Below are positions 22,900 through 52,399 of a stretch of 64,000 nucleotides of DNA, piece after piece. The notes under the pieces were generated by a model. It did no database searches, had not been told where the DNA came from, and saw only the letters and a program-made list of their open reading frames with translations. This DNA comes from Raillietiella orientalis (taxonomy: Eukaryota), in the NCBI GenBank assembly GCA_036172245.1, contig JAYWIR010000005.1, positions 5,394,001-5,458,000 of the forward strand, in the 5' to 3' direction. The position numbers were made by a program, and so were the translations under genes. Every line of letters starts with the position of its first letter. Position 1 is the first letter of the stretch.

Positions 22900-23927
22900 C
22901 TTGGGCTCGGCTCACCAGCACTAGCCTGGAAGATCTCGTCCTGGCTCAATGGTTTGGCAGGATGCCTACAGAGAATCGTTGACGGACAGACGAAGTGGAC
23001 TCATGCATCCGTCACACCTGTGGCTGCAGCACTGTCTTCCCTATGGGAAAGCAGTGATAGTTGCCTACTGGCCAGTGGGAGTTCTCCTACAACATCGTTG
23101 GAGTGGAAAAACTTTTAGGCGGATACTCTACGAAAGTGCTGGCCGACGCGGCTAATCCTTTCTTGTAGATGAAGAGACCTCACCGGTGGACCGACACGTT
23201 AAGTGTGCTCCCGTAAGAACTCTGGTCCCTCCCCTGTGTCTGAACACTACTGGTCTTTCTCTACTGTGGCAACACGATGTGGTGCTGTACCTGCATTGGG
23301 GTCTTCCCTGCAACGAGCGCGTGCACCACATGACGAGAGGGAGTGCGTCTGCTGAGTGTGTGCCAGGTGTGGAGAGACCGAACCGCGCTCCCTGCTGATG
23401 AACTGCGGCGTCATCCGTCCTCTATGGAAGAGGCTGACATCGGCTCTTCACCCGGAAGTCACCCCTGTTAATTTGCTGCATCGCTTCTTCAGCCGAGACG
23501 GGCTCTCGTCTGCCGCTGTGATGCGACTTTGTGTTGCATCCGCGGCATCCTAACGGTCCGATACTCGTTAGAGTTGTACGGACAGCGAAGAGAGGCTGCC
23601 TGCATCGCTATGGTTTTTCTGAAGAAAGCAAGTAGGTGGCCTCATCTGAAGCAAGAAAGCAGGGAGCTCAGCAGCATCACACGAACAATTTAGAAGATAG
23701 GCAGCAATCCCTGTGTCCCCTTTCCCACCCACCAAGTATTCATTTGTTCATCCCCGCACTCCCTCAGTGCTGCAAACAACTTCTTTTTTGTTCTGAGGGT
23801 CGGAGAGTCCTCCCCGATGAACTTTTTGTTTCTTTTTTTTTATTTATTCACGGGGACTGCGTTCCTTGTTTTTGGTGGAGTTTTATTTTTTCATCAAAAT
23901 AAACGACCGGGCGCAACCGGTTGAAAA
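22900..23927 (+). mobile_element. L1/Tx1-like LINE 3' portion (zf-RVT, 3' UTR, terminal hairpin)
   Basis: 'LVPPLCLNTTGLSLLWQHDVVLYLHWGLPCNERVHH / CARCGETEPRSLLMNCGVIRPLWKRLTSAL' is colinear with element C. T-rich UTR, then AATAAA 23898-23903, hairpin 23904-23923 and AAAA. An endonuclease remnant ('GRIDRYL', ~22035) lies upstream. Confidence 0.85.
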
Positions 23928-25903
23928 GCCTGTCGGGTCGCGAGAGTCCACGAGCAGACTTTGCTTCTTCTGAAACAGTGAGCCAAGGTGAACTCTGTCC
24001 AGGGAAAAGGAGAAGTACTGGGCTAGCCATTCGACGCGCCGGCCGCCTCTTTTTCTTCCAGGACTTGTAAGGGAGATGCACTCGCCTTTCCTCTTCTCTT
24101 GCCAAGTGAGAGCCTCTGACCGGTCCATCGAGCGTGCAGCAGCCAACTTCCAACTCATCTGGTGGTACATGGCTAGTACGACCGCCCCCGCATCGCATTC
24201 CTTCGTGGATGCCTTTTCTCGTATACGCGTTCACAATTCCTGGCGGAAGATGCAACCTCCGACCTCAAAAGAGCTGCCCTCCTTTGCGTCATTCTCACCA
24301 CCCGTTCAAATAGAAAAGCACGGCACTTGGTCGGTGGCTCCCGTGCTGGTTGGGAGGTCATAAGCGCTTTCGGGTGCGTCTTTCAGAGCGCAGGCGTTGG
24401 AAGCTGGGCAACAGTGCCAGCAGGGTTGACATGGGGACAGCCTCCCCCCCCCGGTTCAGTCCACCTGAAGAACCTCGCCTCGCAGTTCTCGAAGTCACGA
24501 GCGAGTCCCAGCTCTGGCTGACTCCTTTCCTGGTCATCGAGCCAGAGCTGTGAGTGGTTTCACGAGATTGGGTACTGCGCATCTGATTCTTCCCTCATTC
24601 GCTGCCGCGTTACTGCGCACGCAGCTGCAGCAAGAGCACTGGGTAACCGGCATTAGGCAGAAAATCCAGGTCTTGACTACCGAGAGACTTGAAATCTCGC
24701 ATTTTCGAAAATCCCTTTTCCTTTTTTTAGCAAGCATCAGATGCTCGACCAGTGGAACAATCTATCGAACGCCCCTCCAGGCGTGATGACACGGCGACTC
24801 TTTCTTAGACCATTATCCCGATCAGTTTCTGTTCCCAGAACGCAGTTTCTCCCCCTCCGCGTTCCGTCCCCGATACGCACTCCTTCATATCCAACGTGGA
24901 AGAAGAAGGATGGAGCAAGTTGCCAATTCATCGCTGGAGACGGACAAATCTTGGGTGTTGTCCCTCCGCCCTACTCTCGCCTTTTACTCCAGCAGGAATT
25001 GTGTCAGCACAGGTTGAGGCCTTCGACTTTCTCTTGTCGATTCTCAGGGATTCTCGCTAACCGAGAGCGAAATCTCCTCCTGTCCAGCTGTCATTCCCCT
25101 TCCTCCATAGAAGTGACCTACAGAGCTTCTGACGTTTAACTCCTCTAGAAGCCTAGACGTCTTCGGCGTTTGATTCCCGATTCCTGCACCGACTGGGGAG
25201 CAGGTCGCTGTCAGAATACTTTTCTAACTCGCGCGATTCACGGGGAGCATTTTTGGATGCTCAGCTGGATGTCAGATCTGCTTAGATGCCTTAATGAGGA
25301 GTCGGAAGAAGATCACTTCCGAGCTTCGCATTGCCATCCCCCTGCATGGCTGGAGGTGGTGGCTAAAGATATGACCTTGTAGATTTTCTCTGGGAATCTC
25401 ATCAGACTGGAAATTGCATCAAGGGTGACTAGTTATCTAAGACGTAGTTGAAGAAGCAGTCTTGAATGTAGAGCTTCTTTACTGTGAGACGGGTCACAAT
25501 GGAAAGGAAGCGAAGATTGTTGAATAAATAAGTGGTAGCTCTTGACTCTTGGCATCTCCAGAAAGACTTTTCCGTAATCCCGAAAGAGCTTGGGGAACCT
25601 CCTGGATGCCTTTTGCTCGTTTCTCATCGTGCAAATTCATGAAGTTCCCCATGGAGGGACTCCTCTAGACACGCAGCGAGCCCTCCTTTCGTCGTCAGCC
25701 AGTTGGAATAATCCTCTCTTCTCAGCTAGAAACGAGAGTTTTGTTTCTGATTCCATGGAGAGAAATCTGCTTCTTTCTTGTCCCATCTGATGCATTCTGA
25801 GCTTCATGCAAGTTTCGCATCTGCCACCTTGGGTGTCTGGCATTCCTGTCGGAGAAGAATGCAGTTCCGTTGCTTTCTCCTGTCAAAATGATTTGAGAAC
25901 AAG

Positions 25904-26019
25904 GTATGATGCGGACATCCTTGGTGGCCTTCTCTTCTTATGCTGATTACGACCAACGGTTACTCGCGTACGTCAGGGCAGTAGCCATTACAGGAACCAT
26001 CGTTCTGATCTATCAGCAT
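25904..26019 (+). mobile_element. 116-bp retroposed short-element fragment, copy 2, with 7-bp TSD
   Basis: Flanked by GAACAAG at 25897-25903 and 26020-26026. Same 3' end as copy 1 but longer at the 5' end. Confidence 0.75.
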
Positions 26020-29000: not shown

Positions 29001-30474
29001 CGCTGCGGAGACGCATTCCCCGAGCTTGGACCGGAACCAGGAGACGCATTTCTGCCGACATACGCGCTGGTTCCATGCCAGTATACTTATGTACGTACGT
29101 ACATGTGTACATGTGTACAGTAACGCATACATTAGCAGGGACTTCTTCACATATTCAGATTTATCAGTGTATGTTAGTGCGTGTTCACACGTGAAGATGG
29201 GCGTATCTGCACGCGCATTTCTGGAATCTCTCGGCAGCCACAGGCGACGGGATGCGAAAGGAATGCGAAGGACTCCAAGCAGCGGTCAGGACTCACGGGA
29301 TGCATCGCTCCACGAGGAACGACAGCCTTCTGTGGGAGAAGCAAAGAGGGAATGGCGGGAAGCTGGCATCAATGATCTCGGGAAGCTGGAGATCCCCTCA
29401 TTGCGAGAGAGGGAGGGATCGGAGGAAGAAACTCCAGAAGCAGGCAGAGGCAGAGCGTCGGCCAAGGGCAGCGGAGCAGGGAGCGACCGCATTCTGGGGA
29501 AGAGAATCCTCGAGCGAAGGACGCTGCGGAGATCAGCAGGAATGCCCGGCACTTCGGTTCTGACCGAGGAATGGCTCTGCAGAGAGGTGCTCGAGCTCAA
29601 AGGGGTTGGAGAGGGCGCGTTCAGGAGACCTCTCCTTACCCTCTCCCTCCTGCGTACCGCGGCTTTATTTAAGATCGCCGTCACTCCCTCAGCCCTCTAC
29701 GAGAGGAGACCAAGCGGTGAAATAGATGGAGCGTTTTCCTCTCATCTCTCCGGGGAGGCATCCTGCGCGGGAACCACGGTCACACTCGCGTGAAACGCGG
29801 GCGTGCAACCGATGAGAGGGCAACGGCGAAGGGCCAAGCTCTGCCGGAAGGAAGCAGAGAGCTGCTAATGATGCCGCAGCCGAGCGTGTGGAGGTCTCGT
29901 GAGGAAAGGAGGGACGGGAGAGAAACAGATCATGGCTTGGGGACGGCGAGCGCGCGGGTCGCAGGTGCGGCGGACGGAGCATGCTGGATGATACGAGCCT
30001 TCTCCCCTGGGGGCATCCGCCGGTCATCACCGGTGCGACGCGCTTCGTTCTCCGGCGACAAGGCAGAGTGGCGGATGGGTAGACTGCTTCCTCACGCCTG
30101 CCGAAGGTAACCCGTCTAATCGCAGCCAAGTCCGCCGCACCATTGAGATCCACGGCGGATGCTGCTGCAGGATCTGGAAACACTGTGGAGATTCTCTTGT
30201 GATTCCCCAAGGGAATTTTCAGACTCCGAGCTTCTTGATCCGCTCCTTCATTTTTCTCCGAGTTACAGCGCCCCAATGTCTTGCAGAGGCTCTGGGATCT
30301 TCCCTGGGACGGAGAACAGAACCATGCTCTCGCATGAAAGGGCCCCTGCTCACGGAGAAATCGCGGGAACCCTCCCCCCCCCCTACCCTTGTGCTCTCGC
30401 ATTGCTCCCGAAGCGGCAGCAGGGATGTACCCGCAATGCCAGGGAGCTTCGCTTCCCCAGCATCCAGCAAGACG

Positions 30475-30962
30475 GACCACTCAGAAGGACGGTCGTCTCT
30501 TCGGGATTACCATCTGCCCACTTGCCGGCCATCCCTCTCCCACTTTGCAAGAGCGGCGGTAGCAATTACGGTCAAAGAAAGGTGTGGACAGAGTCCGAGT
30601 GCGGTCATCCGTGAAAAGGACGACTCGCGACGATTACGGACGGACCTAGACTTCCTCAATTGACCTAGTCCCCACAAAACAATCTATTTTCCCGGTCCTT
30701 CCCTTCCATACCGACGCAGGTTGTCGGGAACCATAGTCGTATCGTTGTCACCACCATCTTCATCATCGTCGTCGCCACGGTGAGGCCGATCCATTCTACC
30801 CCGTTTCGCCTCCTCATTGGCCCTTCCTTCCCCCCCCCTCTCTCTCTCCATGCCTGCCAGGCCTGCCTCCAGCGAAGGTCGAATCCTCTCGTTTTGCGTC
30901 AGCAGATGGCTGGCCCTTTCTTTTGGGGGCAGTTTCGCTCACCCATAGTGAACGGATGGTCC
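30475..30962 (+). repeat. ~490-bp dispersed direct repeat, copy 1
   Basis: Matches 51528-52016, with two substitutions and one poly-C length difference seen by eye. Confidence 0.95.
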
Positions 30963-32199
30963 CACACTCTGGGGACGGGAAAGACAGAAGTTCGTCGAGG
31001 TCACTTTGCTTCCGGGATGCGCCTCTCGCTTATGAGACCAACTTTCGGTTCCACGCGGCCCCAGTTACGAGAGGAGAAAATCAGGTGTTTGGGAAGAGGA
31101 GAAAAGGCGCCTCCCTTGTGCCTCCAGAGCATGGGAACCAGGTGGCGCCTCGAATGCCCTCCGAGTAATGCCGTAACCCCAATAGATCAGATCGAAATTC
31201 GGATCTGAGGTGGGGAAGCTGTGAGTGCGATCCCTCTCCCCTGAAAACCTACAGATGAGCCCAAACCGAAATCTCTGCTGCCGGTGGGTGTGACTTCTAG
31301 GTAGAGAGCATTCGGATCCGGGAGGTGCGAGCTTGACGCACTGCCTGCGGCGTTCTTTCGCAGATCCTCTACCGCCATCGTTTTCTCACTCCTCGCAGAG
31401 TCAGAAGAGTTTGGCAGCCTCACATCTGGTTCTTGGATGGGCCTCAACACCAGAACCAGGATCCCTATTCCTTCAAGGGGACCCCGGGAGATCTGAGGAA
31501 GGCTTCGTGAATTCTTGGCTTCTCTTTTCTTTTTTGATGAGGAGCGAGAAGAGCGGACACTTACGAGTGGAGGAGGAGGAACGTACGGAGGAATATGCAG
31601 AGAAATCGTTCGTCCTTTGATTCCGGCTGCTGCGGAAGGGAGGATTGACCCCTATCCTCAGCCTTTCAGACTGGCTGCGACGTTCAGGCACCAAGAGATG
31701 CCACGCCCTGAGATGGCTCTCAAGGCAAGCCGCACGGCAAGGTTACAGATCTGGGCCGAGAGAGGGACGTTTTGCGGGAATTGCTGGTTTCTTAACTCTC
31801 TCGTCTAGAATACCGCTCGGAGCTCTTTGCTGCTGCTGCTGCTGTTCATGCAGAGAGCAGTCACTTCCATGCTTGGGAGTGCCCTGGTGCAAACTGCTCG
31901 TCTCCCAGCGCACTGCAATCTCGTTCTCCGTCTTCTCTCTTCGTCCTCTTTCGTCCTGCGCGTCCTTCGTGAACTCCGAAGAGAACTTCAAATCTTCACT
32001 CTCTCTTTCTTCTCCTCTTCTCCTTCTTTCTACCCGGCAGTTCCTCCCGTCTTTGTTCCCCCTCTTTCCGGAAGTCGAAAGTTGTGGTGCACACGTCTCG
32101 ATCACGTTCAAAACCAGTAGGGGTTAAAATCCTCCTCCACATCATATTGGCAGGAACTCATTGGAGTATTTGCTACAGCCACCAAGATCTGCGCCGGAG

Positions 32200-35100: not shown

Positions 35101-35600
35101 TATTCTTTGTCCATACGCCTCGCCGTTGGTAGGGTTAGTCTTCCGTACCCGGAAAAGATGCTCTGTCGTCCCTGAGTGCGTCCTAGACAAGATGATGGCG
35201 CCTAAAGCTCGCGTCTGGCTTCCAGAGGCAGACACCGGAAGGTATAGCAACTCTGTGAGGAGGAGTTTCCATGTTTTTTGAAAAAGAAATCTGTCTGTTT
35301 CATCCGTAAGGTTCGAGATGGATACTGATTCTGCGAGTAGACGAGAACATATAGTGGAAACTGCACCCGTCTCGATGACTGGTGCTGCTGCCTTGGTGTC
35401 GGGAAAGAGGTTACGGAAGCGAGCACTCTGAATGAACAGGTTCTCTGGCAACCATCGTTGAGAAAAATTTCATCTTCCCAGTTGCAAGCTGTGGAGGCAA
35501 CTGGTTAGAAATATTGAACCTCCATCTGAACAAAAGGATCGTGCACAAATCATCTTCCTCTCATCTGATCAACAGCTGGTAATTGACCTTCTTCATCCAT
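32200..35600 (-). mobile_element. Decayed L1/Tx1-like LINE ORF2 (boundaries approximate)
   Basis: 'IILSRTH' (cf. LQETH) and 'GQRIVS' near 35.1-35.2 kb. RT-like 'CGGSNLFPMIRALRRLRQLL...IAIVFAS' and 'GDRGAIIPSWEFEAL' near 33.7-33.95 kb. Confidence 0.35.
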
Positions 35601-38600: not shown

Positions 38601-41149
38601 AGCCGGATACATCGGCGCCCCAAACCACTGATCTACTCTTCCCATTGGTGGCTTCGCCACCTGAAACTTCCTCCCTCTTTCCCACTGCCCTCGTGAGCGG
38701 CCTGGTCTTGTCTTTATTCCCTCTCGGAAGCGGTTCCAGGAACGGTGAGGCGTAGGGCATAACCCTCCACCCCAAGGGAGCATCCTAGATCGAGAAACAA
38801 ACGGGCGTGGCAGGGGAGCAGATCCATTCCTGTTAGATGAGGCATTCGCCCACTCAGCAGTTCGGCTGCACGGGGCGAGGAGCAGGGTTCTCGGAGGAAG
38901 GTGCAGAGAGTGGATGAGAGCAGCCCAGAAGGTGTTGTGGGTGGGGGAGGATACGTCGCCGCAGTCCAGTTCCTCTGCGCGATCGATGCGCCTGGGCAAC
39001 GCCTTTTCCAACTGGAGGCAGTACCTTTTCGAGACGTCTGGACTCAGCCCTGATTTTCTCTGCACCGTGGAGACCTCCGTCAGACCGGTGTCGGTTGGCT
39101 GCTGCCGCTGCCTCCCCTTCCTCGCAGCTACTGAATTTCCACGGTGCCCACGCCTTCGAGGAACACGGGTGGGTCACCAACTCAATGGTTCCTCCTGGGC
39201 AGGTTCTTCCGAGGTTTCTCCGGAATCCGAAAGGGCCATGGCTCTCCCCCTGCCCCTCCCGAAAGAAGAGCACGAGGCGCGAGGCCTTCCAGAGAATCTC
39301 GCGCAGTTCGATGACTGTGCGTCCCCGCCATGGACGAGTCGAGAGCATTCCGAGTGCGCGGGGATCCCCTCGGGAGCAAAGGTAGGGTTCCGCAGCGCAA
39401 AACGCGAGCGGAAGCCTTGCGGGAACGCGAGAGGGAACCACCCACAGGAACCCCGAAGGCTCCACACGGCAGTGCTTAGGCTCACAAAACCAGCAGCAGC
39501 CCCCTCCGGCAGCTGCTCTACACCTCCGTCTGCTGAGCAGCCTCGGGTGACCTCCCTTCAAAGTCGGGCAGGCCATTCTACAGATGCCCAGCTGGTGGGG
39601 AAGTTGGCAAAGTGCCAGGGGAACGGAAGATCCGTGGGCGATCGGCAGAGGCGCCGTCGCAAAGGAAACGGCGCTCTAGAGAGCGAGCTCCACCAGGGAA
39701 ACCGTCGGGAAGTGCAGGTCGGAATATAGGAACGGATGCTCGTGGGGCCCGCAGCCTTGTCTGGAGGATGAATAGGAGACGAGGCTCAGGAAGCGAGGGC
39801 GCGGTCGTGGTTGTGCCTCCTCTCCTCCCTCCCCCGGCGCATCACTTGTCAAGACAAACACGGGTGAAATCCTGTGGTCACTGTGGATTCTCCGGCAGAT
39901 GGTGAGTGGGACAGCCGACATCTCCCGAAGGAGAAAGCGCTCCTTCGTTTCCGGAGTGCCTCTCACTCTGCCACTCTTCGAATGACCGACCGGAATGCGG
40001 TTAGCAAGTGGGGCAGGGAGCTCCCTTCGCACTCCGGAGGCCCAAGGGGCCGGGAGCGAATCTGATGCTGCGGGGCCAATTCCGGTAGCAGGAACCACTT
40101 CCTGCCATTCGGATTTCTTCGCGGGAACGCCTTTGTGCGCGTGCTCGAGAACCCTGCAAAAACACGTCCTTCCGCTATCGGCAGCCTCGGTGCGCCCATG
40201 CGCATGCAGTCACGCCCCCTTGGTTGCATTTTCGTGACGTCATCCTCAGGGTCGGCCGCTTCGCAGCGCTTTTTCGCAAGTACCGGCTGTTCTGGTTGTT
40301 TAGCCGGTTCCCGTCTCCTTCTCAATCTCGTCTCGGGAATAAAAACAAAACGAAAACAAAATGGAGACTCTAGGAGATAAACAGGACGAAGCACAAATGG
40401 AGGCTCTTCCGAGGAGTAGGAAGGAGTGAGGGATCGTACCAGGGTGCGCCGTTTGAAGAAGAAGAAGAAAAAAAAAGGCCATCTATCCCGTCGCCGGAAT
40501 CCACTATGTCCCTATTCCGTTCATCGATAGCTCTGAGGCTTTTCCTGCTGGAGTGCCGACCGGAACGCTCGAACAGAAAGAACCGGGAAAGCCACTTGCT
40601 CGACGGAGCGGAAATCTTCTCCAGCCTCCTCCATGGTCACGGCCGTGCCAGCAAAGGAGGGATGGCGCAGCGCGGTTCCCTCCCTCGCCTCCCTCCTTCC
40701 GGGCGCATCCGAGCGGGAAGATTCCGTCGGAGCCCATCTCTGGAGCCTCTTTGTCTCACTGAAGGGCTGGAAGGTCTCCCGGATTCTGCCGGCCTTCCGT
40801 CCTCGCGGGAGGAAGCGCATCTCGCCTGAAGCGTTCCGTTAGGGTCATTCCCCTTCCGGGTGCACTCCCCTCCAGCTCTCTCGCTCTTTCTGGGACACTG
40901 GGAGCTGGTCCCTTCCGATCACCGGAAATCCGCCAAAGGCTGCCGCAGCAGCGCGAAACTCTTCCGGAGGCGGCCCGCTGGTCCCCTCCTTCCACCTTCT
41001 CTTTGGAGTCTACAGAATGTAGGACCTGGTTCCTGAACCCATCGGGTCTGCGATCCTCTCCGTGAGACCGTCGATCCGCTTCGGTCCGGGGGATGGTCAA
41101 GCAACGCCTTTCGCGTCGAAGGAGCAAAGTCCATCCTCCAGGAAAATCC

Positions 41150-41987
41150 CGCACCGCACCGGGCGGGTCCCTCGCCCCGCTCCATCTGGCGTCAGGCCGC
41201 CTAAAGCCTCTTTCGGGGAAAGCAGGAGGCAAAGTGTAGGGGGAGTGCCACTGTCTTTTCGGTGGCGATGGTGCCACCTGCAACTTGTGCCGGCTCCTTC
41301 TGGTTACCAGAGCACGGGGAGTGTCTCTTCCTGCGTTCATTCGTGACCTCGCGACCAGAACAGACCAGCCTCTCCTCCGCGACCTCGCAGCGATCGGATC
41401 CGGTCGCATGCACTCCTCCTCTGGCCTGACCTCCCACCGTCACTTCCGGCAGCTCTACCGCCGCCGACCCAGCTTCTCACAGGCCTCCCATCTCTCCCGC
41501 GACACTGATCAACCCGCCCTGAAAGACCGAGGAGGAGAGCAGTCGGAAGCAGAGCGCCTTACCCGGCTGCTTGGGCGGGAGGCATGGGATGGGAAGAGCT
41601 CCCAGCTCTTCCTCGGAGGACGAGCAATCTCTAGCCTCCGACCTTCTCAATGGGAACGCTCCAGTTGAGTAGGGGTGTCGATCTGGTCGCCTCTCCCGGA
41701 CCTGTCCTGCTGGGTCCTTCGGGGAGCGTACCGGGAGCGTGCGCCCCTGTTGCTACTGCGGCGACGGGGTGACGGAGCGCCCGTTCAGGGAGGTCGACCT
41801 GGAGACGGAGAAGCTCTAGGGAGCCTCCGCCTATTCCTAATCGCAAGCAGATGGCCCTGAACTGACCACTGCCATTCTGTCGAACCCTTCATGCCTCCGA
41901 AATGAAATTCACGAGAGGCAAGAATGGAATCGAGCGCGGGAACGCTCCGCAGCGGACGGCCACTCTTCTTCCATCCTTCCGTCGTCG
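41150..41987 (+). mobile_element. Element E: old LINE endonuclease remnant that appears to host the nested block
   Basis: Degenerate 'GSATVF / LQLVPAP' (cf. GVA.LF, NVYAP), 'SRGVDLV' (cf. SRID), 'TDHCH' (cf. SDH, ~41863) and 'RGK/WN' (cf. G.WKLN). Confidence 0.35.
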
Positions 41988-41992
41988 GTTGT

Positions 41993-43583
41993 TTATCACC
42001 CGGGTGCGCCGGAGCGTTTATTAAAAACTATCCGGGAACAGATTTCCTGGACAAAGGAAAAACAAGAGACGAAGGGGGTGAGATCCCCGACACGCAGGTC
42101 GGTATGCCGAAAGTCCGGAACGGGAGGGAGGGGACCACAAATACACTACTATAAAAAATAAAAATAAAAATATGGTGGGCAGGGGACAGGGGTCTTTGGT
42201 TCGGCCGTTCCTTCCTTTCAGAACCGGCGATGGATGCCGGCGATCTCTCTCCTCACGCCCTCTGGTAGATGGGCCCACTCGGCAGCCGACGACATGCTTG
42301 CGCCGGCTAATCCGGTAGGCTGACGAAGGATGGCCAGCTTCTCCAACTCTCGGTGGGCCTTGTCGATGGCGCGGGTGCAACACACGGTTGCAACGACAGC
42401 ACCCAAAGACAGGCCGCCTGGCGTGAAGAAGCGGCGCATCCAGTCTCTCGCGGTGTCCCCCTGGTGCAGGAGAGCTGAGGTCAGCCTCCGCCACAGTTCT
42501 AGGAGGGCACCGCAGTCCAAGAGCAGGTGCGGGAGCGTTTCCACTTCCCCGCACCGCTTACACTTTGGGGAGACAACTCCCCCGGAAACACGGTTCGTCC
42601 GCTGGTTGGAGTGAAAACCCCAATGCACCAGCATGATGACGTCCTGCTTCCACGAAAGGGGGAACACAGAAGTGTTCAAACAGGAGGGAGGGACCACAAG
42701 TTCTTCGGGGGCCACACTTAAGTGTTCACTCCACCGAAGGAGTCCCTTCGAGATGTGGCGAGGCGTGGCGGCATCTGCCAGCTCGCAAGTCCTCCAGCCG
42801 CCAATAGGTCGTGTTGTTCCTGCGATGGTGCGGGCGACCTCCCATCTCGCTGGCTCGCAGCTGTCATCTTTTGCCCTGAGGGCTGACAGCGCATCGGCGA
42901 GGGGCGTGACGGCCAGGCGAGTCCACTTCTGGCTGTTGCACACCTCGTCCACCGTGCAATACGGGGACAAATGAGGCAACGAAGTTCCAGGAGGGAAACA
43001 TCCTGGTGCTTTGCCCAGCCATGCAACGGTTCCTGCCTCCAGGCTTCAAAGTTCGTTGGGCGGCAGGAGATCCATGCGTGGGCTGCCAGGAGCCGGTAGA
43101 GAGGTTTCAAGGGGAAACCGAAGCTATTCGTGGAGCGCTCCGTGTGTGGCCGGAGCGACAGAAGTCCATCGCAGCCGGTGCAGCGCCGCAGGAGCAGGCG
43201 CGCGGGAGCGCACCACGGAGTGGACCAAAGGTTGGCGCACAGGGCCAACATTCGAAGCTGCACCTGCAGCTCGATTCTCTCCAGCGTCAGGATGCCTAAG
43301 CCGGCATCCCGATGCAGAGCCGCCAAGTCTTTGAGGCGGATCCTGGACCTCGCAGGTCCCCACAGAGCGTTCCTCAACAGACTGTGCGCCTGGAGCTTGG
43401 CCGAGTGGGGGGGAGGGCAAACAAAAAGCAGGGGGCGCAAGAGGGGGGCAATTAAGGTGTTCCATATCGCGGCCCGCTCCGGCAGGAGGAACCTGCCATG
43501 GTGGAACGGGCTCAGAGCACTCGTAGCCTTCCGAAGGCAGTCCGACCACACTTCCACTGGGCTGATGCTCCCCAGCGGAACGC
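41993..43583 (-). mobile_element. Element C: 5'-truncated L1/Tx1-clade LINE with 14-bp TSD
   Basis: TSD CCGTCGTCGGTTGT at 41979-41992 and 43584-43597. Reads from 'GVPLG' through 'DAGLGIL' to 'CKRCGEVETLPHLLLDC' with one frameshift (~42980). 3' UTR, AATAAA (42017-42022) and terminal hairpin (41997-42016). Confidence 0.93.
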
Positions 43584-43597
43584 CCGTCGTCGGTTGT

Positions 43598-44125
43598 ATT
43601 GGCAATGTGGCGCTCGCAACACCTGTGGCGTCGCGTTTTTTGTGAAGCCAGCAGTCGACGCCGTCGTCAAGGGCGTACGCTTCGACAAGGACGGTCGGGT
43701 TGGCCAGCTGATCCTCAGGTGGTCCGACTCGATCGACCTTGTCGTGACGAACGTGTACGCTCCTAGCGGCGGATGCGGGTACGGGGAACATTCCCGGTTC
43801 CTCGAAACCCTGAAGCGCGACTGGCTGGCTGATACAAACGTACGCAAGGCACACCTGATCGGTGGGAATTTCAACATCCGTCTGCTATCAGGTGTGCCTT
43901 GCAGGCAAAAAGACGGCCAACGAGTTGTGAGCGGAGATGCGGGCGCGCAACTTGTTGGAAGACCTCCCGGAAATGGTCCCAAGCGTCGACCAGGTTTTCC
44001 TTGACGCCGACCTGTGTCCACGGGTCGGCAGACGAGGGAAACTTCCATCGACGCTATCCGACTATTTCCGGTTGATTTTCGAGGTTAGCCTCGTGACAAA
44101 GGACCACCATCCAGGGCGTGGCGTC
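43598..44125 (+). mobile_element. Element B, 5' segment: APE endonuclease domain of an L1/Tx1-clade LINE
   Basis: 'CGVAFFV...DKDGR...NVYAP...LIGGNFN' and 'LSDYFRL..EV', ending 'HHPGRGV' at the element A TSD. Confidence 0.92.
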
Positions 44126-45465
44126 AGTTCTTCAGCATCTACTTCGAGCTGGTGCTGAAGGCATACAGAGAGACTCTGGCAACCTTGCCTAGCTCGTGTC
44201 CCGGTACGCCTGCCGTGTCGGCCTATGCCGACGACCTTCTGCTCCTACTACCCGGGACCACCCCGGCATCAGTGCTCGAAAAATTCTTTGAGCTGCTGCG
44301 CCGCGGGACAGGCCTGGAGGTAAACAGGAAGTCGTCGCTACTTGCAACGAACACGTCGTGGCGCGGATCGTCGGACTGGATCCGCTTGGGGATCCCCACG
44401 GGCGGGTACATCAAGTACCTTGGCGTCCCATCGGGGGACTTCTGCGCTGCAGAAGCCTGGTCCGACCGTCTCCAAAAGATGGAGTTGGCGATCGGTCCGT
44501 TCCGGGATGGCAAGTTTTACTTGCAGGAACAGACCACGGTGTGGAACGCTTTTGCGGCCCCTCTCCTTCGCCCCCTACTTTTTGTGTGCCCCGTCCCTCC
44601 CCAAATTAGGACACAGACAAGGGGCCTCATCAGAAAAGCCCTTTGGGGAAACTGGAGGTCCCGCGTCCGACTTAAAGACTTGTGCGCTCCACGCAGGGAC
44701 GGTGGACTTGGTCTCCTGACGTTGGAGCGCATGGAGCGTCAGCTCCAAATCAGGAAATTTGCCCTTGTGCCAAAATATTAGACAGCACCATGGTGTGCGC
44801 CCACACGACTCCTCGCCCACAGGGCAACCGGCTGCTACGGATTGACCTCAATCCTAGTAGCCAACGACCGTAGTCTGAACCATTGTGGGTTTCAACTACG
44901 GGACTTGGTTGCCCTGGTGAGGGACAACCCGTGGATCTCCTGCATACTGCATACTCCTATCTCCTGATCTCCCGCGGACCGGACTACCTGGCTACAGGAG
45001 TCCGTTTCCGCGTGGGCTAAAATCAACGGCTCCAGCGATGTGGACTTCTCCTGCCTCCGTCGAGGCAGGTACGCTGACCAGCCATTGCAGGAGATCGTTT
45101 CCAACTCACGGAAACTTCTGTGGCCTTTATTCACCCTCCTTGCCCCCGTGCTGCCCTCCATCAGGGATGCCAGGGACAGCCAAGAAGAGATATCGTGGGA
45201 AGTGTCCTGCCTCATCGAAGGCGGAAAAAAACTAATGAAGGCGTGGACGTCCCGGGAACTAGCGGACGCTACAACCCCGAGTGTCCCGCCTTCTGGACTT
45301 GTGCGCTGGGGCGAGCTGCTCGATATGCCTCCGGAGGAGGTGAATTGGCCCCCAGAGTCTTGTGACAACCGCACCCTCCCCCTACAGTGGCAGGAGACGG
45401 CGTTGCTTCTGCTCCATTGGGGACTTTTAAGCAGATCACGCCTGTCTCACTGAACCTCAGGGAGT
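44126..45465 (+). mobile_element. Element A, 5' segment: 5'-truncated LINE RT (YADD) and downstream ORF2
   Basis: 'FSIYFELVL...SAYADDLLL...GLEVNRKS...IKYLGVP...DGGLGLL'. 20-bp TSD ACCATCCAGGGYGTGGCGTC at 44106-44125 and 48393-48412. Confidence 0.93.
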
Positions 45466-47745
45466 TTTCACCCGGTCACGCCGGGGCGTTTATTAAAAAA
45501 AACACAGTACATCTGCGGTACTAGGCCCCGCTACGGCCCATATTTCATGGGACCTGCCAGGAAGCCGGTTCGCAGACCGGCTTGACTCTCCTCGGCAGCA
45601 AGGGGGGGGGGGGTAGGGGGTAAAACAAAAAGAAAAATAAATGAAATAACAAAAAGAAACTATTTGGGGGGCCGGGAAGGGATCACAACCCGCTGGAGGA
45701 AGAGACCATTCCTTCCAGGATGCCCTCGAGGTCCCTCGTCATAGCTCCCAGATGGGACCAGCCGATCGCGATTCGCAGGTAGCGACCCGCGTGTACGATG
45801 GGGTCCCTGTCGCTGCTTCCTCTGTTGGCTGCGCTCCACGAGGCCACAATCCCTCGGAGGCAGCAAAGCGCTGCCACGGTTGAGGCTGGTGGCAGGGTGT
45901 CTCGCACGAAGAGGAGTCTCACAACGTCTCTGCGGGTACTGCCGACCGGCATAGGGAGGGTCGTAGCAAAACGTTCCCACAAGGGCCGGAGGGCAGCGCA
46001 GTCCACTAACAGATGGGGGAGGGATTCTTCCTCCCCGCACACTGCACAGTTCTGTCCCACGTTCCCCAACGTCCAGTGGTGGCGGCGCGCATTGCAGGGA
46101 ATACCCCAGTGCAGCAGCAGCAGCGCCGTTTCCTGCCACTTGAGGGGGAGGGTGGATGAGTCTATGAACAACGGGGGCCACTCTAGGTCATCCGCCGGGA
46201 TGCCAAGCAGCTCGCCCCATCTCCGTATTCCATGCGGGTGAACGCTTGGGGTTGCGGCGTCTGCCAGTTCCCTCATGGTCCACCCGCTTAGATTCTTCTC
46301 CTTGCCCGCTATCCTGCAGGATACTTGCCATCTCGGCTTCCGAATATTTTGGAGCGCCCTCCGTAGGAAGGGCAGCGCCGTGGCTAGTGGGGTCGTCTCC
46401 GCCCAAGTGCTTCTGGCGGGACACTCGAGCATGTTCCGCAGCGTGCAGCGGGTGTAGATGCCGGGTCGCAGGCGGTTCCACGATTCACCACTTGACTGGT
46501 TTAACTTCTCCCACGTGCCAACTGTTTCTTCCAGCCATGCGCTGGAGTTGGCGGGGATGCAGGCCATCCAGCCGTTGTCCTTGGCCAGGGTGGCCATGCG
46601 TCCCAGGAGAAGTCCGCATCTTCTTATTTTCCGGCCGGGGCACAGAAGAAAAGACGCGAGTCCTTCAGTCCCGGACACACGTCTGGCGAGAAGGCGGGCT
46701 GGAACGCACCAAGGGGTGTTCCCCATTTTCGCCGCGATGGCTAGAGTACGCCACCGCAGCTGTGTTTCCATTCGCTCCATCTTCAGGACGCTAAGACCTA
46801 CGTCCCGACGTGGAGCGCAGAAATCCTTTAAAGGCACACGAGGCGTCCCGCTGCCCCACAGGGCGATGCGTAGGAGGTCCTTTGTTCTTTTTTTCAGTTC
46901 ACGGGGTACGGGGCAAACAAAAAGCAGAGGGCGAAGGAGGGGGGCCGCGAACGGGTTCCACACCGCGGCCCGTTCCGGCAAGTGAAGCTTGCCTTCCAGG
47001 AACGGGCCGATCGCTAACTCCACTTTTTGGAGACGACCTGACCACGCTTCTGACTGGCAGAAGTCCCCCAACGGAACGCCGAGGTACTTCAAGTACCTCT
47101 CCGTGGGGATCCCCAGGCGGATCCAATCAGGTCGTCCTGCCCACGTTGCACCAACCGCAACCAGCGACGACTTCGTCCTGCTCACCCGTAGTCCTGTCCC
47201 ACGGCTCAGCAAGTCGAAGAAATCTTCGACTGCCGAAGCCGCTGCGGACATGGGCAGCAGGAGCAAAAGATCGTCAGCATACGCCGACACGGCCGGCGTG
47301 CCGCGGCACGAGCTCTACAGGGCAGCCTATGTCGCTCTGTATGCTCTCAGCACCAGTTCGAAATAGGTGCTAAAGAGCAGGGGACTCAGGCTGTCGCCCT
47401 GCCGGATGCCGCGCCTCACCGGCACGCCGAACACGTGCTGTCCTCTGAAAAACAAGTTGATGATCGCATTGCGCCAGCAGGCGCGCAGGTAGGCCGTTAA
47501 GGTGTCCGGGAAGCCCATGCGATCCAGGAGCTCCGGAAGGAGTTCCTGGTCCACGCAATCGAACGCTTTGTGCAGATCGACTGCGATCGCTAGAGCCCCC
47601 TTCCCTTCCCGGTCGTCCCTTACTTGCCCCGCTGGCGCCCCCAAATCAGGTTTGTCGACATTCCGTTCTTTTTCCTTTTTTTCCTCGCGTTGCACATGGA
47701 ACCATGTGCTGGTGAAGAACAGGTTCGCTTCCATGCTTCGCCCTG
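45466..47745 (-). mobile_element. Element D: 5'-truncated L1/Tx1-clade LINE inserted antisense in A, with 7-bp TSD
   Basis: TSD AGGGAGT at 45459-45465 and 47746-47752. Motifs 'GRSMEAN', 'VDLHKAFDCV', 'GIRQGDSLSPLLF', 'YADD', 'KYLGVP', 'CAVCGEEESLPHLLVDC'. Open 535-aa frame at 45683-47290; stops at 47315 and 47327. AATAAA 45489-45494, hairpin 45469-45488. Confidence 0.95.
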
Positions 47746-47752
47746 AGGGAGT

Positions 47753-48392
47753 GTGGATGCCAATTGCACAGAGTGTGGGGAAAGGGAGACCTTCCCCCAC
47801 TTAATTATCGAGTGTGTTGCCCTTCTCTAGATGTGGGATCGACTCTCATCGATCCTGAACATTCCGGTTGGCGACCCAAAAAACATTTTTCGACGCCTCC
47901 TGATGCGGGACACCATGCCAGCCGCCGCGTGTGTCGCAGTTCTCTGTTGCATACGTGGAATTTTGGATAAGTGGACCGCAACAAGGAGAGGACGGTGAAA
48001 TCGGAATGCCATCCACTGGGCAGCCATCTCTTTGGAGAAGGCTTCCCGTTGGCGCCGACTTAGAAAACATTTGCCGGCACTTGTTCGCATCCAAACCCGG
48101 ATGCAGAGGTCTCCTCACTGCGTACCGTGATCCCTTCCCTTTCCTCCCCTCCCTAAGAATATTGTCCCCCCAGGCGTATTCTTTTTTGTGGGTTTTTTCT
48201 GTTTTTCCCGCCCTTTGCGCCAGCGGAGAGGACCTTATCGGCCTGAGGGTCGGTAAGGACAAGTGCCCCAAGACAGTCACAACATGTGTTCTGACTGAAA
48301 AACAAAAATAATGTTGACAAAGAAGACTTTATTATGGAATTTTACCATGTAAAAATTTTAATAATAAAAGCCCCGGCTCACCCGGGTGAAAA
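47753..48392 (+). mobile_element. Element A, 3' segment: zf-RVT, 3' UTR and terminal hairpin
   Basis: Removing D rejoins 'SRLSH*TSGS|VDANCTECGE..TFPHLIIEC', colinear with 'ARRHHWTLGNVGQNCAVCGE' in D. AATAAA 48363-48368, hairpin 48370-48388, AAAA. Confidence 0.92.
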
Positions 48393-48412
48393 ACCATCCA
48401 GGGTGTGGCGTC

Positions 48413-51173
48413 TGCCGGGGACTGGACGCGGATCTCAGGTGCGGCGGAACACCGCCGATACCTGAGAGGCGTCACCCTCTGGAATCTCACAGACTGGAAT
48501 CTCATGAAGGTCTCAGTCCGCGAGTTCTGCGAGGAGTTCCCTCTGCACCTCCTGCCCCTGGGATTTGGTGAGAGGGCCCGCAACGAAAGAGAGTATTTGC
48601 AGGCCCGTCGTTACGGGAGGACCCCTAACGTCCGTCTCTTGACCGAGTACAAAGCCGGGGCCGAGCGTCAAACCTGGCAATCCGGGCCGCCCAGCGTGCT
48701 GGACGACCTGGACCAGGAGCACTCGGACCAGGCTTCGATACGTCGCCTCGTGCGGGGATTTTACTTCTCCCTTACGCCAGGGCACCTGCGGAGTGGGACG
48801 CCTCGCGGCGCTTACTCCCAGATGGAGCCCCGGCCATAGGAGAAGAAGAGAAAGAAAGCCTCGACGAACCTTTTACGACCGGTGAAATCATAACCGCGAT
48901 TAAAAGGCTCAAAAGGCGTAAGGCGCCAGGGGAGGACGGTCTGCCGGAGGAGTTTTTTCAGTGCTTCGCGGCAGAGCTGAACCCCTGGTGCTCGAGTTGA
49001 CACGGCTGATCCTAGACGAAGGCACAGTACCATAAGGCGTTCGATTTTCACCCGGATTTCGCCGGGGCGTACCATAAGGCGTTCGACTGCTTGGACAAGG
49101 AACTCCTTCCGGAGCTCCTGGATCGCATGGGCTTCCCACCCTCCCTACTGATCTACCTGCGCTCTTGCTGGCGCAGTGCGATAATAAAAGTTTTTTTCAG
49201 CAGTCAGAATGTGTACGGCGTGCCGGTGCGCCGCTGGATAAGGTAGGGCGACAGCCTGAGTCCCCTGCTCTTTAGCACCTATTTCGAACTGGTGCTGAGA
49301 GCAAACAGGGTGACATTGGCTGCCCTGTAGAGCTCGTGCCGCGGCACGCCGGCCGTGTCGGCGTATGCCGACGATCTTCTGCTCCTGCTGCCCATGTCCG
49401 CAGCGGCTTCGGCAGTCGAGCATTTCTTCGACTTGCTGAGCCGCGGGACAGGACTACGGGTGAACAGGTCGAAGTCGTCGGTGGTAGTGGTTGATGCAAT
49501 ATGGGCAGGACGACCTGACTGGATCCGCCTGGGGATCCCCACGGAGAGGTACTTAAAATACCTTGGCGTTCCGTTGGGAGACTTCTGCCAGTTAGAAGCC
49601 TTGTCAGGTCGTCTCCAGAAAGTAAAGTCGGCGATCGGCCCGTTCCTGGGAGGTAAGTTTCAGTTGCCGGATCGGGCCGCGGTGTGGAGCGCGTTCGCGA
49701 CCCCCCTTCTTCTCCCCCTGCTCTTTGTTTGCTTGTACCCCGCGAGATGAAGAAGAGAACCAAGGACCTCCTGCGCATCGCCCTGTGGGGCAGCGGGAGC
49801 CCCATGTGCCTCTGCAAGACTTGTGCGCTCCACGTTGGGATGGCGCTCTTGGCCTCCTGACGCTAGAGCGGATGAAAATTCAGCTGCAATGGCGAACCTC
49901 GGCCATCGCGGCGAAGTACTGGAGCACCCATTGATGCGTTCCGGACCGCCTCCTTTCCAGCCGTGTATCCGGGATGCAGGGTCTCGCGTCGTATCTTCTG
50001 TGCCGCGGCCGGAAGATCAAAAGATGCGGCCTTCTCCTGGGACGCATGGCCACCCTGGCTAAGGAGAACGGCTGGATGGCCTGCAGCCCCACCAACTCCA
50101 GCGCATGTCTGGAAGAAACAGTTGGCACGTGGGAGAAGTTAAACCAGTCAAGTGGTGAATCGTGGAACCGCCTGCGACCCGGCATCTACACCCGCTGCAC
50201 GCTGCGGAACATGCTCGAGTGTCCCGCCAGAAGTACGTGGGCGGAGACGACCCCACTGTCCACGGCGTTACCCTTCTTGAGGAGGGTGCTCGGCAGCAGC
50301 CGAACGCTGAGGTGGCAAATCTCCTGCTGGATAGCGGTCAGGGAGCAGATGATGAGCGGCTGGACCACGAGGGAACTGGCTGACGCCACGACCCCGAGCG
50401 CCCTCCCGCGAGGAATTCGGAGATGGGGTGAGCTGCTGGGCATCCCGCTGAATGACCTAAAGTGGCCCCCGGTATTCAGAGACGCATCCACCCTCCCCCT
50501 CAAGTGGCAGGAAGCGGCGCTGCTGCTGCTGCACTGGGGTATTCCCTGCAATGCGCGCCGCCACCACTGGACGTTGGGGAAGGTGGGACAGAAGTGTGCA
50601 GTGTGCGGGCAGAAGGAATCCTCCCCCACTTGTTAGTGGACTGCACTGGCCTCCGGACCTTGTGGGAACATTTTGCTACGGCCCTCTGGATGCCGGTCGG
50701 CAGTACCCGCAGAGACGTTGTGCGACTCCTCTTCGTATGAGACGCCCTGCCACCAGCCTCAGCCCTAACAGCGCTCTGCTGCCTACGAGGGATGGTGGCA
50801 GCGTGGAGCGCAGCCAACAGAGGAAGCAGCGATAGGGACCCCATCGTACACTCGGGTCGCTACCTGCGAATCGCGATCGGATGGTCCCATCTGGGAGCTA
50901 TGCAGAGGGACCACGAGGGCATTCTGGAAAGGATGATCTCTTCCTCCAGCGGACAGCGATCCCTTCCCTGCCCACCCAAGTGTTTCTTTTTTTTTGTTTT
51001 CCTTTTTATTTTTATATTTGTTTTCTCCCCCATCCCCACGGTTGCCGAGAAGAGTCAAGCCGGTCTGCGCACCGGCTTCCCGGCAGGCCCCACGGTCTAT
51101 TGGCCGTAGCGGGGCCTCGTACCGCAAATGTACCGAGTTTAGGAATAAACGCCCCGGCGTGACCGGGTGGGAA
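48413..51173 (+). mobile_element. Element B, 3' segment: RT, zf-RVT, 3' UTR and terminal hairpin (with deletions and stops)
   Basis: 'KAPGEDGLPEEFF', 'HKAFDC', 'GDSLSPLLF', 'YADD', 'KYLGVP', 'CAVCGQKE'. AATAAA 51144-51149, hairpin 51150-51169. Probable 12-bp TSD CTTCCGTCRTCG at 41976-41987 and 51174-51185. Confidence 0.93.
49045..49068 (-). mobile_element. 24-bp LINE terminus-only insertion with 18-bp TSD
   Basis: GTACCATAAGGCGTTCGA is duplicated at 49027-49044 and 49069-49086. The insert's reverse complement is GCCCCGGCGAAATCCGGGTGAAAA. Confidence 0.92.
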
Positions 51174-51527
51174 CTTCCGTCATCGCCGACGAGGCGAGGA
51201 GCGTGCATTCCCACCCGAGGTCATGCGTGCCTCTGAGAGCGAGTAGTCGTACGCCCACTGGAGCATGGCCCCCACGGACTTGAGTTCGAGAGTTTCTTGT
51301 GCGCGTGTCAGGTTCCCGTTGTGTTCGCGGCAGCGTGCACTTCTTTTCTTCTCTCTCCTTTTTTCATTCCACGGTCGAAGTCTCAGTGGGATTCGCCCAC
51401 TGACCCAGGTCAGCTGGGAATCTGCGAAAGAAATCGCCCCTGAGCACGGAAAGATCGTGTAGATTCCCTCCCCTCCCCCGTGCTCACGACGCCGGGGGGC
51501 TCCGTCTTCCCAGCATCTAGCAGGGCC

Positions 51528-52016
51528 GACCACTCAGAAGGACGGTCGCCTCTTCGGGATTACCATCTGCCCACTTGCCGGCCATCCCTCTCCCACTTTG
51601 CAAGAGCGGCGGTAGCAATTACGGTCAAAGAAAGGTGTGGACAGAGTCTGAGTGCGGTCATCCGTGAAAAGGACGACTCGCGACGATTACGGACGGACCT
51701 AGACTTCCTCAATTGACCTAGTCCCCACAAAACAATCTATTTTCCCGGTCCTTCCCTTCCATACCGACGCAGGTTGTCGGGAACCATAGTCGTATCGTTG
51801 TCACCACCATCTTCATCATCGTCGTCGCCACGGTGAGGCCGATCCATTCTACCCCGTTTCGCCTCCTCATTGGCCCTTCCTTCCCCCCCCCCTCTCTCTC
51901 TCCATGCCTGCCAGGCCTGCCTCCAGCGAAGGTCGAATCCTCTCGTTTTGCGTCAGCAGATGGCTGGCCCTTTCTTTTGGGGGCAGTTTCGCTCACCCAT
52001 AGTGAACGGATGGTCC
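51528..52016 (+). repeat. ~490-bp dispersed direct repeat, copy 2
   Basis: Near-identical to 30475-30962. Confidence 0.95.
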
Positions 52017-52399
52017 GGCACTCCGGTGACGGAAGGTCAGACGCGATTGGCTGGCGTAAGCCAAAGCACGCTTCTGCTCGGCACCGGAAGGGAAATGGGA
52101 GGAGGATTTACCAATGAAGCTGGAACCAGACGACCTGCTTGTTTGGGATCAGCAGACTCTGCTGATGCCCTGGGAAGTCATTTTAGGAGAGAAAGCTGTC
52201 ATCTGAAACAGGAGGAAGCCTAGAAGATCGAAAGGCACCTGGGAAGTCCTGAACACCGACCGCGTCTCAACGGCATGCTTCATGCGTACGAAGATCAAGG
52301 TCATGGACTGCGTCTTTGGCACTCGTTTCAAGCAGCCAGTCGCCAGTTCGTGAGAGGCCATTCGAGGCGGCAAGTCAACCATCAGCAACACCTCTTCCA

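Follow-up and report, generated by a model that had tools for sequence, protein, structure and literature searches.

Which RNAs are copied into a genome is decided by the template choice of the LINE RT, and the relatives of L1 are usually thought to depend on poly(A). The locus described here raises the question of how LINEs of plausibly L1-related type, the copies of which end in a short hairpin instead of a poly(A) tail, mark the point at which copying begins. The window, i.e. the whole stretch of DNA that was analysed, comprises 64,000 nt of Raillietiella orientalis (GCA_036172245.1, contig JAYWIR010000005.1, positions 5,394,001 to 5,458,000, forward strand). It contains five decayed long LINE copies, referred to as F, C, D, E and B, and a 24-nt copy (mini), and their termini share one common pattern. 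Reading the sequence directly, we found all six hairpin termini where the initial annotation had placed them. The pattern CCGGN{4,7}CCGGKTGRNAA matched six times in the 64-kb window, against a mean of 0.02 matches in 100 dinucleotide-preserving shuffles, none of which reached six. A covariance model of the six termini, a check put forward in the same annotation and here run unfiltered on both strands of the window, recovered all six with E-values from 6e-11 to 2e-6, and the next match had an E-value of 2.4. The presence in the window of hairpin-ended LINE termini without poly(A) is thereby confirmed. A weak match of the covariance model at 53238 was rejected, and its sequence contains no hairpin.

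The host, copy B (40807..51173, + strand), is interrupted by C, by E together with D, and by mini, and ends in a tail at 51144-51173 with TG-GGAA. According to tblastn and Pfam, its parts are an APE-like fragment (43597-43875), the start of the RT (48696-48985) and the stretch from the RT to the 3' end (49069-51173), which is 86% identical to D. B is flanked by a candidate TSD of 13 bp (40794-40806 and 51174-51186, 12/13 matches), and its 5' end is therefore tentative; at the other end, two contigs of an independent DNA run (X1) track B through the GGAA tail as far as 51173, where they part from it with no A run. Copy C (41993..43583, - strand) is 5'-truncated, measures about 1.6 kb and sits antisense in the APE region of B. 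Its tail runs from 42022 to 41993, has a U.G outer pair, ends in TG-ATAA and is followed by the 3' TSD ACAACCGACGACGG (41979..41992, - strand), which matches the 5' copy at 43584-43597 in 14/14 positions. Copy E (44126..48392, + strand), 5'-truncated within the RT, sits sense in the APE-RT linker of B and has a 20-bp TSD (44106..44125 on the 5' side, + strand, and 48393-48412 on the 3' side, 19/20 matches); contigs of run X1 skip this insertion from 44123/5 to 48415/7. The hairpin in the tail of E (48363-48392) had been annotated as a separate short copy 'A', which has to be corrected: it is actually the 3' end of E, which is split by the antisense copy D. The latter (45465..47741, - strand; tail from 45494 to 45465) is also 5'-truncated within the RT and was inserted just 5' of the CCHC codons of E, with a 10-bp TSD (45455-45464 and 47742-47751, - strand, 9/10 matches) and an empty site represented by X1 contigs that join 45427/45451 to 47742/47747. 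Mini (49045..49068, - strand; GC-CCCGG-CGAAAT-CCGGG-TG-AAAA) sits antisense in the Y-H-K-A-F-D codons of the RT of B, between TSDs at 49027..49044 and 49069-49086 (- strand); it is the only short copy in the window and represents a truncation, not a SINE. Copy F, finally, consists of a body at 22963..23897 (+ strand), identified by tblastn as a 5'-truncated ORF2 C-terminus with 3' UTR, and a tail at 23898..23927 (+ strand; AATAAA-CG-ACCGG-GCGCAA-CCGGT-TG-AAAA) in which the outer pair is A-U and the stem runs uninterrupted for 7 bp; TSD searches of the window revealed no convincing TSD or 5' end for this copy. The order of nesting is B, then C and E, then D. All five mapped targets differ from each other, and in this one window four of them are situated within the ORF2 sequence of a sibling LINE.

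In the five long copies the 3' end always has the same order: AATAAA, 2-3 further nt, a GC stem of 5 bp that closes a loop of 5-6 nt, TG, and four final bases. As the initial annotation had noted, AATAAA directly precedes the hairpin in all five, and it starts exactly 30 nt from the last base, so that the length of this module is identical even in F, which is split differently (no bulge and a 6-nt loop). The final four bases are AAAA in four of the six termini, ATAA in C and GGAA in B. The claim that there is almost no poly(A) was borne out as well, since none of the six copies exceeds four templated A, nor does the tail of any of them extend beyond four bases before TSD or flank begins, as a poly(A) end of the relaxed L1 type would. 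The TSDs, with a length of 10-20 bp, start right after the fourth tail base in 5/6 copies, indicating that these are exact retrotransposon 3' ends without poly(A). The first bases of these five TSDs are TCGAAC, ACCATC, ACAACC, CTCCCT and CTTCCG, and because none opens with a tail-like A run, priming through A-to-T annealing at the target appears unlikely. Mini, which consists of nothing but hairpin, TG and AAAA and is yet flanked by a perfect duplication of 18 bp, demonstrates that the tail is where reverse transcription starts.

The explanation that we consider probable is that the 30-nt module constitutes a cis-acting 3' end, which would function as a stringent-type start signal for the element's own RT and possibly also as a poly(A)-site spacer. 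The ORF2 protein would recognise the hairpin on the RNA of its own element, and target-primed reverse transcription would then begin at a fixed point, four bases past the stem, with no need for poly(A) or for base pairing to the nicked target. The conserved stem would serve as a shared handle, while recognition specific to each lineage, as found in zebrafish ZfL2, may reside in the loop, which differs by subfamily and is the same in both copies of one subfamily. The same block may also set the 3' end of the RNA. An AAUAAA-directed cut usually occurs about 20-24 nt downstream of the signal, and since the distance from AATAAA to the end of TG is a constant 20 nt in all five long copies, thus a normal cleavage distance, the block probably has this second role. 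What we infer in this model is recognition by the protein, together with the parts played by the loop and by AATAAA.

The same spacing can be read differently, namely that the module is mainly a device for forming or stabilising the RNA 3' end. AAUAAA would then direct cleavage right after the hairpin, the hairpin would fix the cleavage point or protect a tail-less end, and the RT would start at any 3' end, or else with the first A of a poly(A) stretch, leaving the hairpin unrecognised. The retention of AATAAA in every long copy at the usual signal-to-cleavage distance fits this, and taken alone it could be explained by 3'-end formation; so does the A-rich tail, which is AAAA in 4/6 termini. 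However, a start inside poly(A) without a ruler predicts tails of variable length, whereas all six have exactly four bases. The GGAA and ATAA tails, and the two other contigs that run through the GGAA of B, suggest that these bases are templated, and the stem sequence is kept far beyond what a spacer needs. We therefore regard this reading as unlikely to be the main account, although it is compatible with the preferred explanation and may form one half of it. The initial annotation had proposed either RT recognition or a 3'-end signal as the role of the hairpin. The exact ends, the TSDs, the lack of poly(A) and the constrained tail agree with such a role, and the function itself can reasonably be presumed from them.

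The minimum-energy structure is the same hairpin in all six termini, with energies from -8.3 to -12.1 kcal/mol. Compared to shuffled sequences this stability is ordinary, with z-scores from -0.08 to -2.9 and between 2 and 91 of 200 shuffles folding equally well. The stem pairs were threaded by a regular expression, since MAFFT and covariance-model alignments misplace the 5' arm of F by one column. Variation in the stem is confined to the outermost pair, where F has a double change from C-G to A-U and C a one-sided U.G wobble. The four inner pairs are invariant in all six termini and consequently say nothing about covariation. The covariation described in the initial annotation thus comes down to one double change and one wobble in the outer pair, and with a single pair in six sequences it is thin evidence that amounts to no statistical test. 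The observation that loops vary while the stem is kept, even between subfamilies with dissimilar UTRs (52-59% identical), did hold: the loops differ by subfamily, with CGTGA common to D and B, and another loop in each of F, C, E and mini.

A palindrome could also work at the DNA level rather than as an RNA signal, for instance by folding in the cDNA or at the junction formed on integration, or by marking a landing place for further copies. Its core, CCCGG...CCGGG, is indeed a near-perfect inverted repeat, and the elements do insert into one another. The antisense strand folds as well or slightly better in 4/6 copies, so that the canonical copies cannot tell which strand acts. The two stem variants, on the other hand, keep their pairing on the sense strand only, through U.G or G.U, and there the sense strand folds more strongly (-11.0 versus -7.0 kcal/mol in F, and -7.4 versus -7.0 kcal/mol in C). 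Moreover, none of the five mapped insertions lies in or adjoins the hairpin of another copy. A role of the palindrome in DNA has, in our view, little probability.

A 3' tail that is far better preserved across diverged lineages than the remainder of the element is a mark of stringent-type recognition. In nine inter-subfamily pairs the 30-nt tail is 77-87% identical, whereas the 200 nt of UTR next to it reach 52-59% and the coding DNA 53-64%. The UTR value corresponds to the level of unrelated sequence in the same alignment, and UTRs are unalignable between subfamilies. The best DNA-level matches between subfamilies reach 70-78% in coding DNA, and for D and B the overall identity is 86% and that of the UTR 78%. 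That the tail is so much better kept than UTR and coding DNA supports the view that it is under constraint. It might instead be an ancestral tail without function, shared by chance or recent common descent; the copies are few and the inner stem never varies. Yet the tail has kept its fixed length and its identity while coding DNA became 36-47% different and UTRs unalignable, and the nesting order indicates that it was used over successive rounds of insertion. Absence of function is for these reasons very unlikely, with next to no probability. The covariance model recovered only the six termini, and thus neither a SINE nor any other non-autonomous element bearing this tail was found in the 64-kb window.

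A bolder reading is that these elements form a deep L1-related lineage that has dispensed with poly(A) altogether, and carry a portable 24-nt tag in the AAUAAA spacer, so that one 30-nt block makes both the RNA 3' end and the start of copying. We consider this doubtful. If true, the 5-bp stem, the lineage-specific loop, TG and the 4-nt tail would by themselves suffice as template, which is what mini would then mean, and they would constitute the smallest known LINE recognition element and a candidate handle for programmable retrotransposition, the more so if insertions into sibling LINEs were truly site-specific.

The initial annotation had assigned the group to the L1/Tx1 clade. RVT_1 was detected in D at 47330-47800 with 36.7 bits (cut-off 29.6), and a 62% identical relative (P0002) scores 85.7 bits. 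The APE-like fragment of B at 43597-43875 aligns by tblastn to residues 79-162 of the protein P0050 (E 1.5e-6), and its Exo_endo_phos score of 15.9 bits is below the cut-off of 24.5. A CX2CX7HX4C motif is readable in D and C, with zf-RVT scores of 22.8 and 17 bits that are below the cut-off of 27.5. Among the 30 best full-length relatives, PF03372 is present in 27 and PF13966 in 21. R1-clade elements also have a CCHC motif, so that this motif alone is not decisive for the L1 group. A quick ML tree was made of 45 RT regions, including three outgroup rows of the EEP2/RNaseH type and without named Repbase/Dfam clade references. In this tree the family forms a long isolated branch (1.26); the other 40 sequences of APE/zf-RVT type group without it (SH-aLRT 82), and a split with a value of 94 sets it apart from the three EEP2/RNaseH-type rows, neither value being starred. 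A phmmer search of PDB with a 705-aa read-through (X at two stops) did not separate R2Bm (5.8e-14) from human L1 ORF2p (1e-13), and a 543-aa ORF gave no match in either the phmmer search of PDB or a longer homologue search. The protein atlas returned generic RVT_1 clusters only; one cluster labelled 'TX1' had a value of 0.88, which is under the lead threshold. No Pfam family at E <= 0.1 that would point to an ORF1 of L1/Tx1 type was found in nine + strand ORFs (55-142 aa) at 40763-41857, which is a weak negative because the 5' part of B has decayed. A Pfam search of 96 and 69 further ORFs gave no other LINE domain except a weak RVT_1 in B (20.8 bits, cut-off 29.6). The domain content (APE fragment, RT and C-terminal CCHC) and the APE, RVT_1 and zf-RVT architecture of the nearest relatives thus make membership of the L1 group plausible.

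Further copies were sought in other sequence collections. In metagenome contigs the protein pattern gave 280 matches, none of which was confirmed by tblastn. The DNA pattern gave one match there (L001), rejected for having no LINE homology, and six in viral contigs, all rejected and all without AATAAA and LINE homology.

How does this group compare with known LINEs? Mammalian L1, the relaxed type, depends on poly(A) and nicks at TT/AAAA. It resembles the nearest full-length relatives of the group in having APE, RT and a C-terminal cysteine motif, and the TSDs here are likewise 10-20 bp, but poly(A) is found in none of the six copies and an A-rich junction in none of the five mapped targets. 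The L2-clade elements UnaL2, ZfL2-1 and ZfL2-2 carry a stem-loop at the 3' end and, after it, a short tail that is not poly(A) (PMC4176376; UnaL2: PMC3747384), and the ZfL2 study describes that ORF2 binds the cognate stem-loop through a linker region, with general recognition of the stem and specific recognition of the loop (Hayashi et al. 2014, PMC4176376). This fits a shared stem with subfamily-specific loops, although the L2-clade tail is a tandem repeat, (TGTAA)n, that allows slippage, whereas this group has a single 4-nt tail and relatives with L1-type domains. In SART1 (R1 clade), retrotransposition and the precision with which reverse transcription starts depend on a structure in the 3' UTR (cited in PMC3472496), but SART1 belongs to another clade, is telomere-specific, and keeps and needs poly(A).

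Stringent, hairpin-bearing 3' ends are already in print for L1-clade LINEs that keep poly(A) (Ohshima 2012, PMC3472496), i.e. the monocot 1a group (LINE1-1_ZM) and Chlamydomonas L1-1_CR, which is ZeppL-1_cRei (PMC3472496; Craig et al. 2021, PMC8226300). As presented in Ohshima 2012, their last ~45-80 nt are much better conserved (divergence 0.144 versus 0.570 in the monocot group), and stringent 3' recognition was inferred from a hairpin that folds at about -11 to -13 kcal/mol and shows compensatory changes. The group described here resembles them in its conserved hairpin-forming tail. It differs from the examples given there in that those terminate with poly(A) and hold the tail in common with SINEs, whereas here poly(A) is lacking and a SINE partner was not found; in the hairpin of the monocot group it is the stem that varies and the loop and flanking bases are conserved, whereas here the stem is conserved and the loop varies, and the hairpin stands directly after AATAAA. 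The tail strategy is therefore already known from other LINEs, including a few L1 relatives, and occurs here without poly(A), so that the group adds a new, well-documented example rather than a new principle. Ohshima (2012) proposed, from a few plant and algal lineages that keep poly(A), that the ancestral mode of recognition in the L1 clade is stringent and based on structure (PMC3472496). A diverse L1-like group with a tiny hairpin tag and no poly(A) would add a data point to this view, and would lend itself, as a compact system, to tests of how stem and loop are recognised. Finally, the location of four of the five mapped insertions inside other copies of the same LINE group is by description reminiscent of the target-specific insertion of the L1-related Tx1 group (PMC3747384), and of Zepp and ZeppL, which are likewise described as inserting into existing copies and building nested clusters (PMC8226300).

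Self-comparison and tblastn resolved the six LINE copies sharing one 3' hairpin end into one host element (B), four insertions in it, and one separate copy (F), and this map replaces that of the initial annotation, in which hairpin 'A' was in fact the 3' end of copy E. B occupies 40807-51173 on the plus strand (tentative limits), with an endonuclease (APE)-like stretch at 43597-43875 and the start of the reverse transcriptase (RT) at 48696-48985. From the RT through to its 3' end (49069-51173, plus strand) B is 86% identical to D, and its candidate 13-bp target-site duplication (TSD) matches at 12 of 13 positions. Copy C (41993-43583, minus strand) lies antisense in the APE region of B with a perfect 14-bp TSD, and E (44126-48392, plus strand) is inserted in sense orientation in the linker between APE and RT of B and has a 20-bp TSD (19/20 matching). 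D (45465-47741, minus strand) is inserted antisense within E, just 5' of the codons for the C-terminal cysteine motif (CCHC) of E, and has a 10-bp TSD (9/10 matching). The mini copy, 24 nt consisting of hairpin, TG, and AAAA (49045-49068, minus strand), sits antisense between perfect 18-bp repeats that code for Y-H-K-A-F-D of B's RT. The stretch 40807-51173 is a Russian-doll nest, with C, E, and mini in B, and D in E. F is a 5'-truncated copy at about 22963-23927, with an approximate 5' limit; no convincing TSD was found for it. Independent support for the nested insertion map comes from a public DNA run, 365 contigs of which were placed at a likeness of at least 80%. Some of them bridge E across the site of D and some bridge B across the site of E, and represent empty sites.

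Four of the five mapped insertions sit in ORF2 sequence of sibling LINEs, which, in this one window, may reflect either site-specific targeting or a preference for copies already in place, as in Zepp. Of note, the RT of B lacks ~130 codons (residues 98-229 of P0002, a relative from the protein collection searched; roughly 400 bp), and the gap is located exactly at the left edge of mini's left TSD (48986-49086). GTACCA, with which this TSD begins, can also be read in B's frame on the upstream side of the gap (…EGT-VP), and the gap may be a microhomology-mediated deletion adjacent to the insertion. Further, a 552-bp direct repeat with 96% identity, for which no Pfam match was found in the ORFs scanned, is present just 3' of B (51491-52041) and 20 kb upstream (30438-30988). 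Just outside the LINE nest, an ORF at 53798-54244 matches the core-histone fold (Pfam Histone, 27.5 bits versus a cut-off of 26.4), and an A14 run is found near it at about 53287-53302. The base composition changes sharply from 35-44% GC in the left 12 kb (1-12000) to 50-61% GC in the LINE-bearing repeat island (12000-54000).

In every mapped copy (5/6), the fourth base of the tail is immediately followed by the TSD; the 3' ends are therefore exact. There is no poly(A) in any of the six copies, in line with its reported near-absence, and the six termini read as given in the initial annotation. The five long copies all end in a fixed module of exactly 30 nt, composed of AATAAA, which had indeed been noted before the hairpin and is present in all five, then 2-3 nt, a 5-bp stem with a 5-6 nt loop, TG, and four bases. 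The latter are AAAA in F, D, E, and mini, ATAA in C, and GGAA in B. The pattern CCGGN{4,7}CCGGKTGRNAA matched six times in the window, against a mean of 0.02 in 100 shuffles, and a covariance model of these termini recovered just the same six (E 6e-11 to 2e-6; window, both strands, unfiltered), with the next match in the window at E 2.4. A weak match of this model at 53238 was rejected, since there is no hairpin at that position.

Identity between subfamilies is 77-87% over the last 30 nt, whereas it is 52-59% over the preceding 200 nt of the UTR, as low as for unrelated sequence in the alignment used, and 53-64% over the coding DNA (nine pairs each; best inter-subfamily coding stretches by blastn 70-78%). 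A contrast of this kind was used by Ohshima for the monocot L1 tail (0.144 versus 0.570 divergence; PMC3472496). The order of insertion was B, then C and E, and then D, thus the same tail was used over successive insertion rounds.

The same hairpin is the minimum-energy fold in all six copies (-8.3 to -12.1 kcal/mol), and shuffles of equal composition are often as stable (z -0.08 to -2.9). Four of the five stem pairs are invariant; variation is confined to the outer pair, with C-G in four copies, A-U in F, and U.G in C. The covariation claimed in the initial annotation is therefore present as one double change (F) and one wobble (C), but it was put too strongly, as it concerns the outer pair only. 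The flanking CG...UG can add one C-G and one G.U pair, and in F, where the bulged C is missing, the stem is continuous over 7 bp. The two variant copies fold more stably on the sense strand, and the four canonical ones slightly more stably on the antisense strand. The indications for a sense-strand RNA structure are suggestive, six sequences being too few for a covariation test. The loops differ between subfamilies (GCGCAA, CGCAC, CTCAC, CGAAAT), as observed earlier, and D and B, as members of one subfamily, both have CGTGA. By eye, the 3' UTRs of D and B contain a second, longer inverted repeat, AAGCCGGT...ACCGGCTT, with an 8-bp stem (45530-45560 in D, minus strand; 51080-51110 in B), which is absent from F, C, and E. 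All five 3' UTRs also open immediately after the stop codon with a C-rich CCCTKYCCC... followed by a T-rich tract (23685-23730, 42190-42240, 45640-45690, 48130-48200, and 50960-51010; by eye), which is a second, looser feature common to otherwise unalignable UTRs.

Stringent-type recognition is the most economical reading of the hairpin end. The ORF2 protein would bind the hairpin on its own RNA, and target-primed reverse transcription would then start four bases 3' of it. None of the five mapped TSDs opens like the tail (first bases TCGAAC, ACCATC, ACAACC, CTCCCT, and CTTCCG), so the RNA end need not anneal to the nicked target. A templated tail, as opposed to a poly(A) remnant, is suggested by the fixed number of four bases, by the non-A variants GGAA and ATAA, and by two contigs of the public run that track B through GGAA to 51173, beyond which their sequence differs and has no A run. 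The AATAAA-hairpin block may also form the 3' end of the RNA, since AATAAA and the end of TG are always 20 nt apart; 20 nt is the usual spacing between AATAAA and the cleavage site. The two roles are mutually compatible. A function in RT recognition or as 3'-end signal, as initially proposed, is a reasonable reading of the exact ends and conserved tail, although the covariation argument supporting it was overstated.

In D, RVT_1 scored above the Pfam cut-off and zf-RVT below it, with a readable CX2CX7HX4C motif. The protein collection searched contained a single close relative, P0002 (62% identity). Among the 30 best full-length relatives (26-30% identity), Exo_endo_phos was found in 27 and zf-RVT in 21, and a single one has Exo_endo_phos_2 in addition to both. 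In a quick ML tree calculated from 45 RT regions, the hairpin-ended family forms a long branch that falls outside the 40 remaining APE/zf-RVT-type rows and is split from three EEP2/RNaseH-type rows with unstarred support. PDB matches did not tell L1 and R2 apart, and nothing among the domains, relatives, RT tree, or PDB matches pointed to L2/CR1. Based on these findings, assignment to the L1 group is plausible, with L1, Tx1, and Zepp all as possible positions within it. For the L1/Tx1 placement first suggested, the basis is the domain content and the closest matches.

Conserved 3' hairpins with compensatory changes have been described for L1-clade LINEs, namely monocot 1a/LINE1-1_ZM, and Chlamydomonas L1-1_CR has a tail in common with a SINE (Ohshima 2012, PMC3472496). 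Unlike the Raillietiella copies, these end in poly(A). Table 1 of the same study gives other 3' repeats for 8 of 15 green-algal L1 families and none for 5. A review by Ohshima repeats the L1-clade hairpin-tail account and puts Tx1 inside the L1 clade (PMC3747384). L1-1_CR corresponds to ZeppL-1_cRei, and Zepp shows nested insertion into existing copies (Craig et al. 2021, PMC8226300). For human L1, a conserved 3' UTR stem-loop has been proposed (Grechishnikova and Poptsova 2016). Limited open-access word searches yielded no L1-group family that combines a hairpin immediately behind AATAAA with the absence of poly(A). The feature is real and well delimited, and is a variant form of the known stringent-type LINE 3' tail, found here in L1-like elements that lack poly(A). 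For zebrafish ZfL2, binding has been assigned to two parts of ORF2, a conserved one for the stem and a variable one for the loop (PMC4176376), and the shared stem with subfamily-specific loops found here parallels this bipartite recognition.
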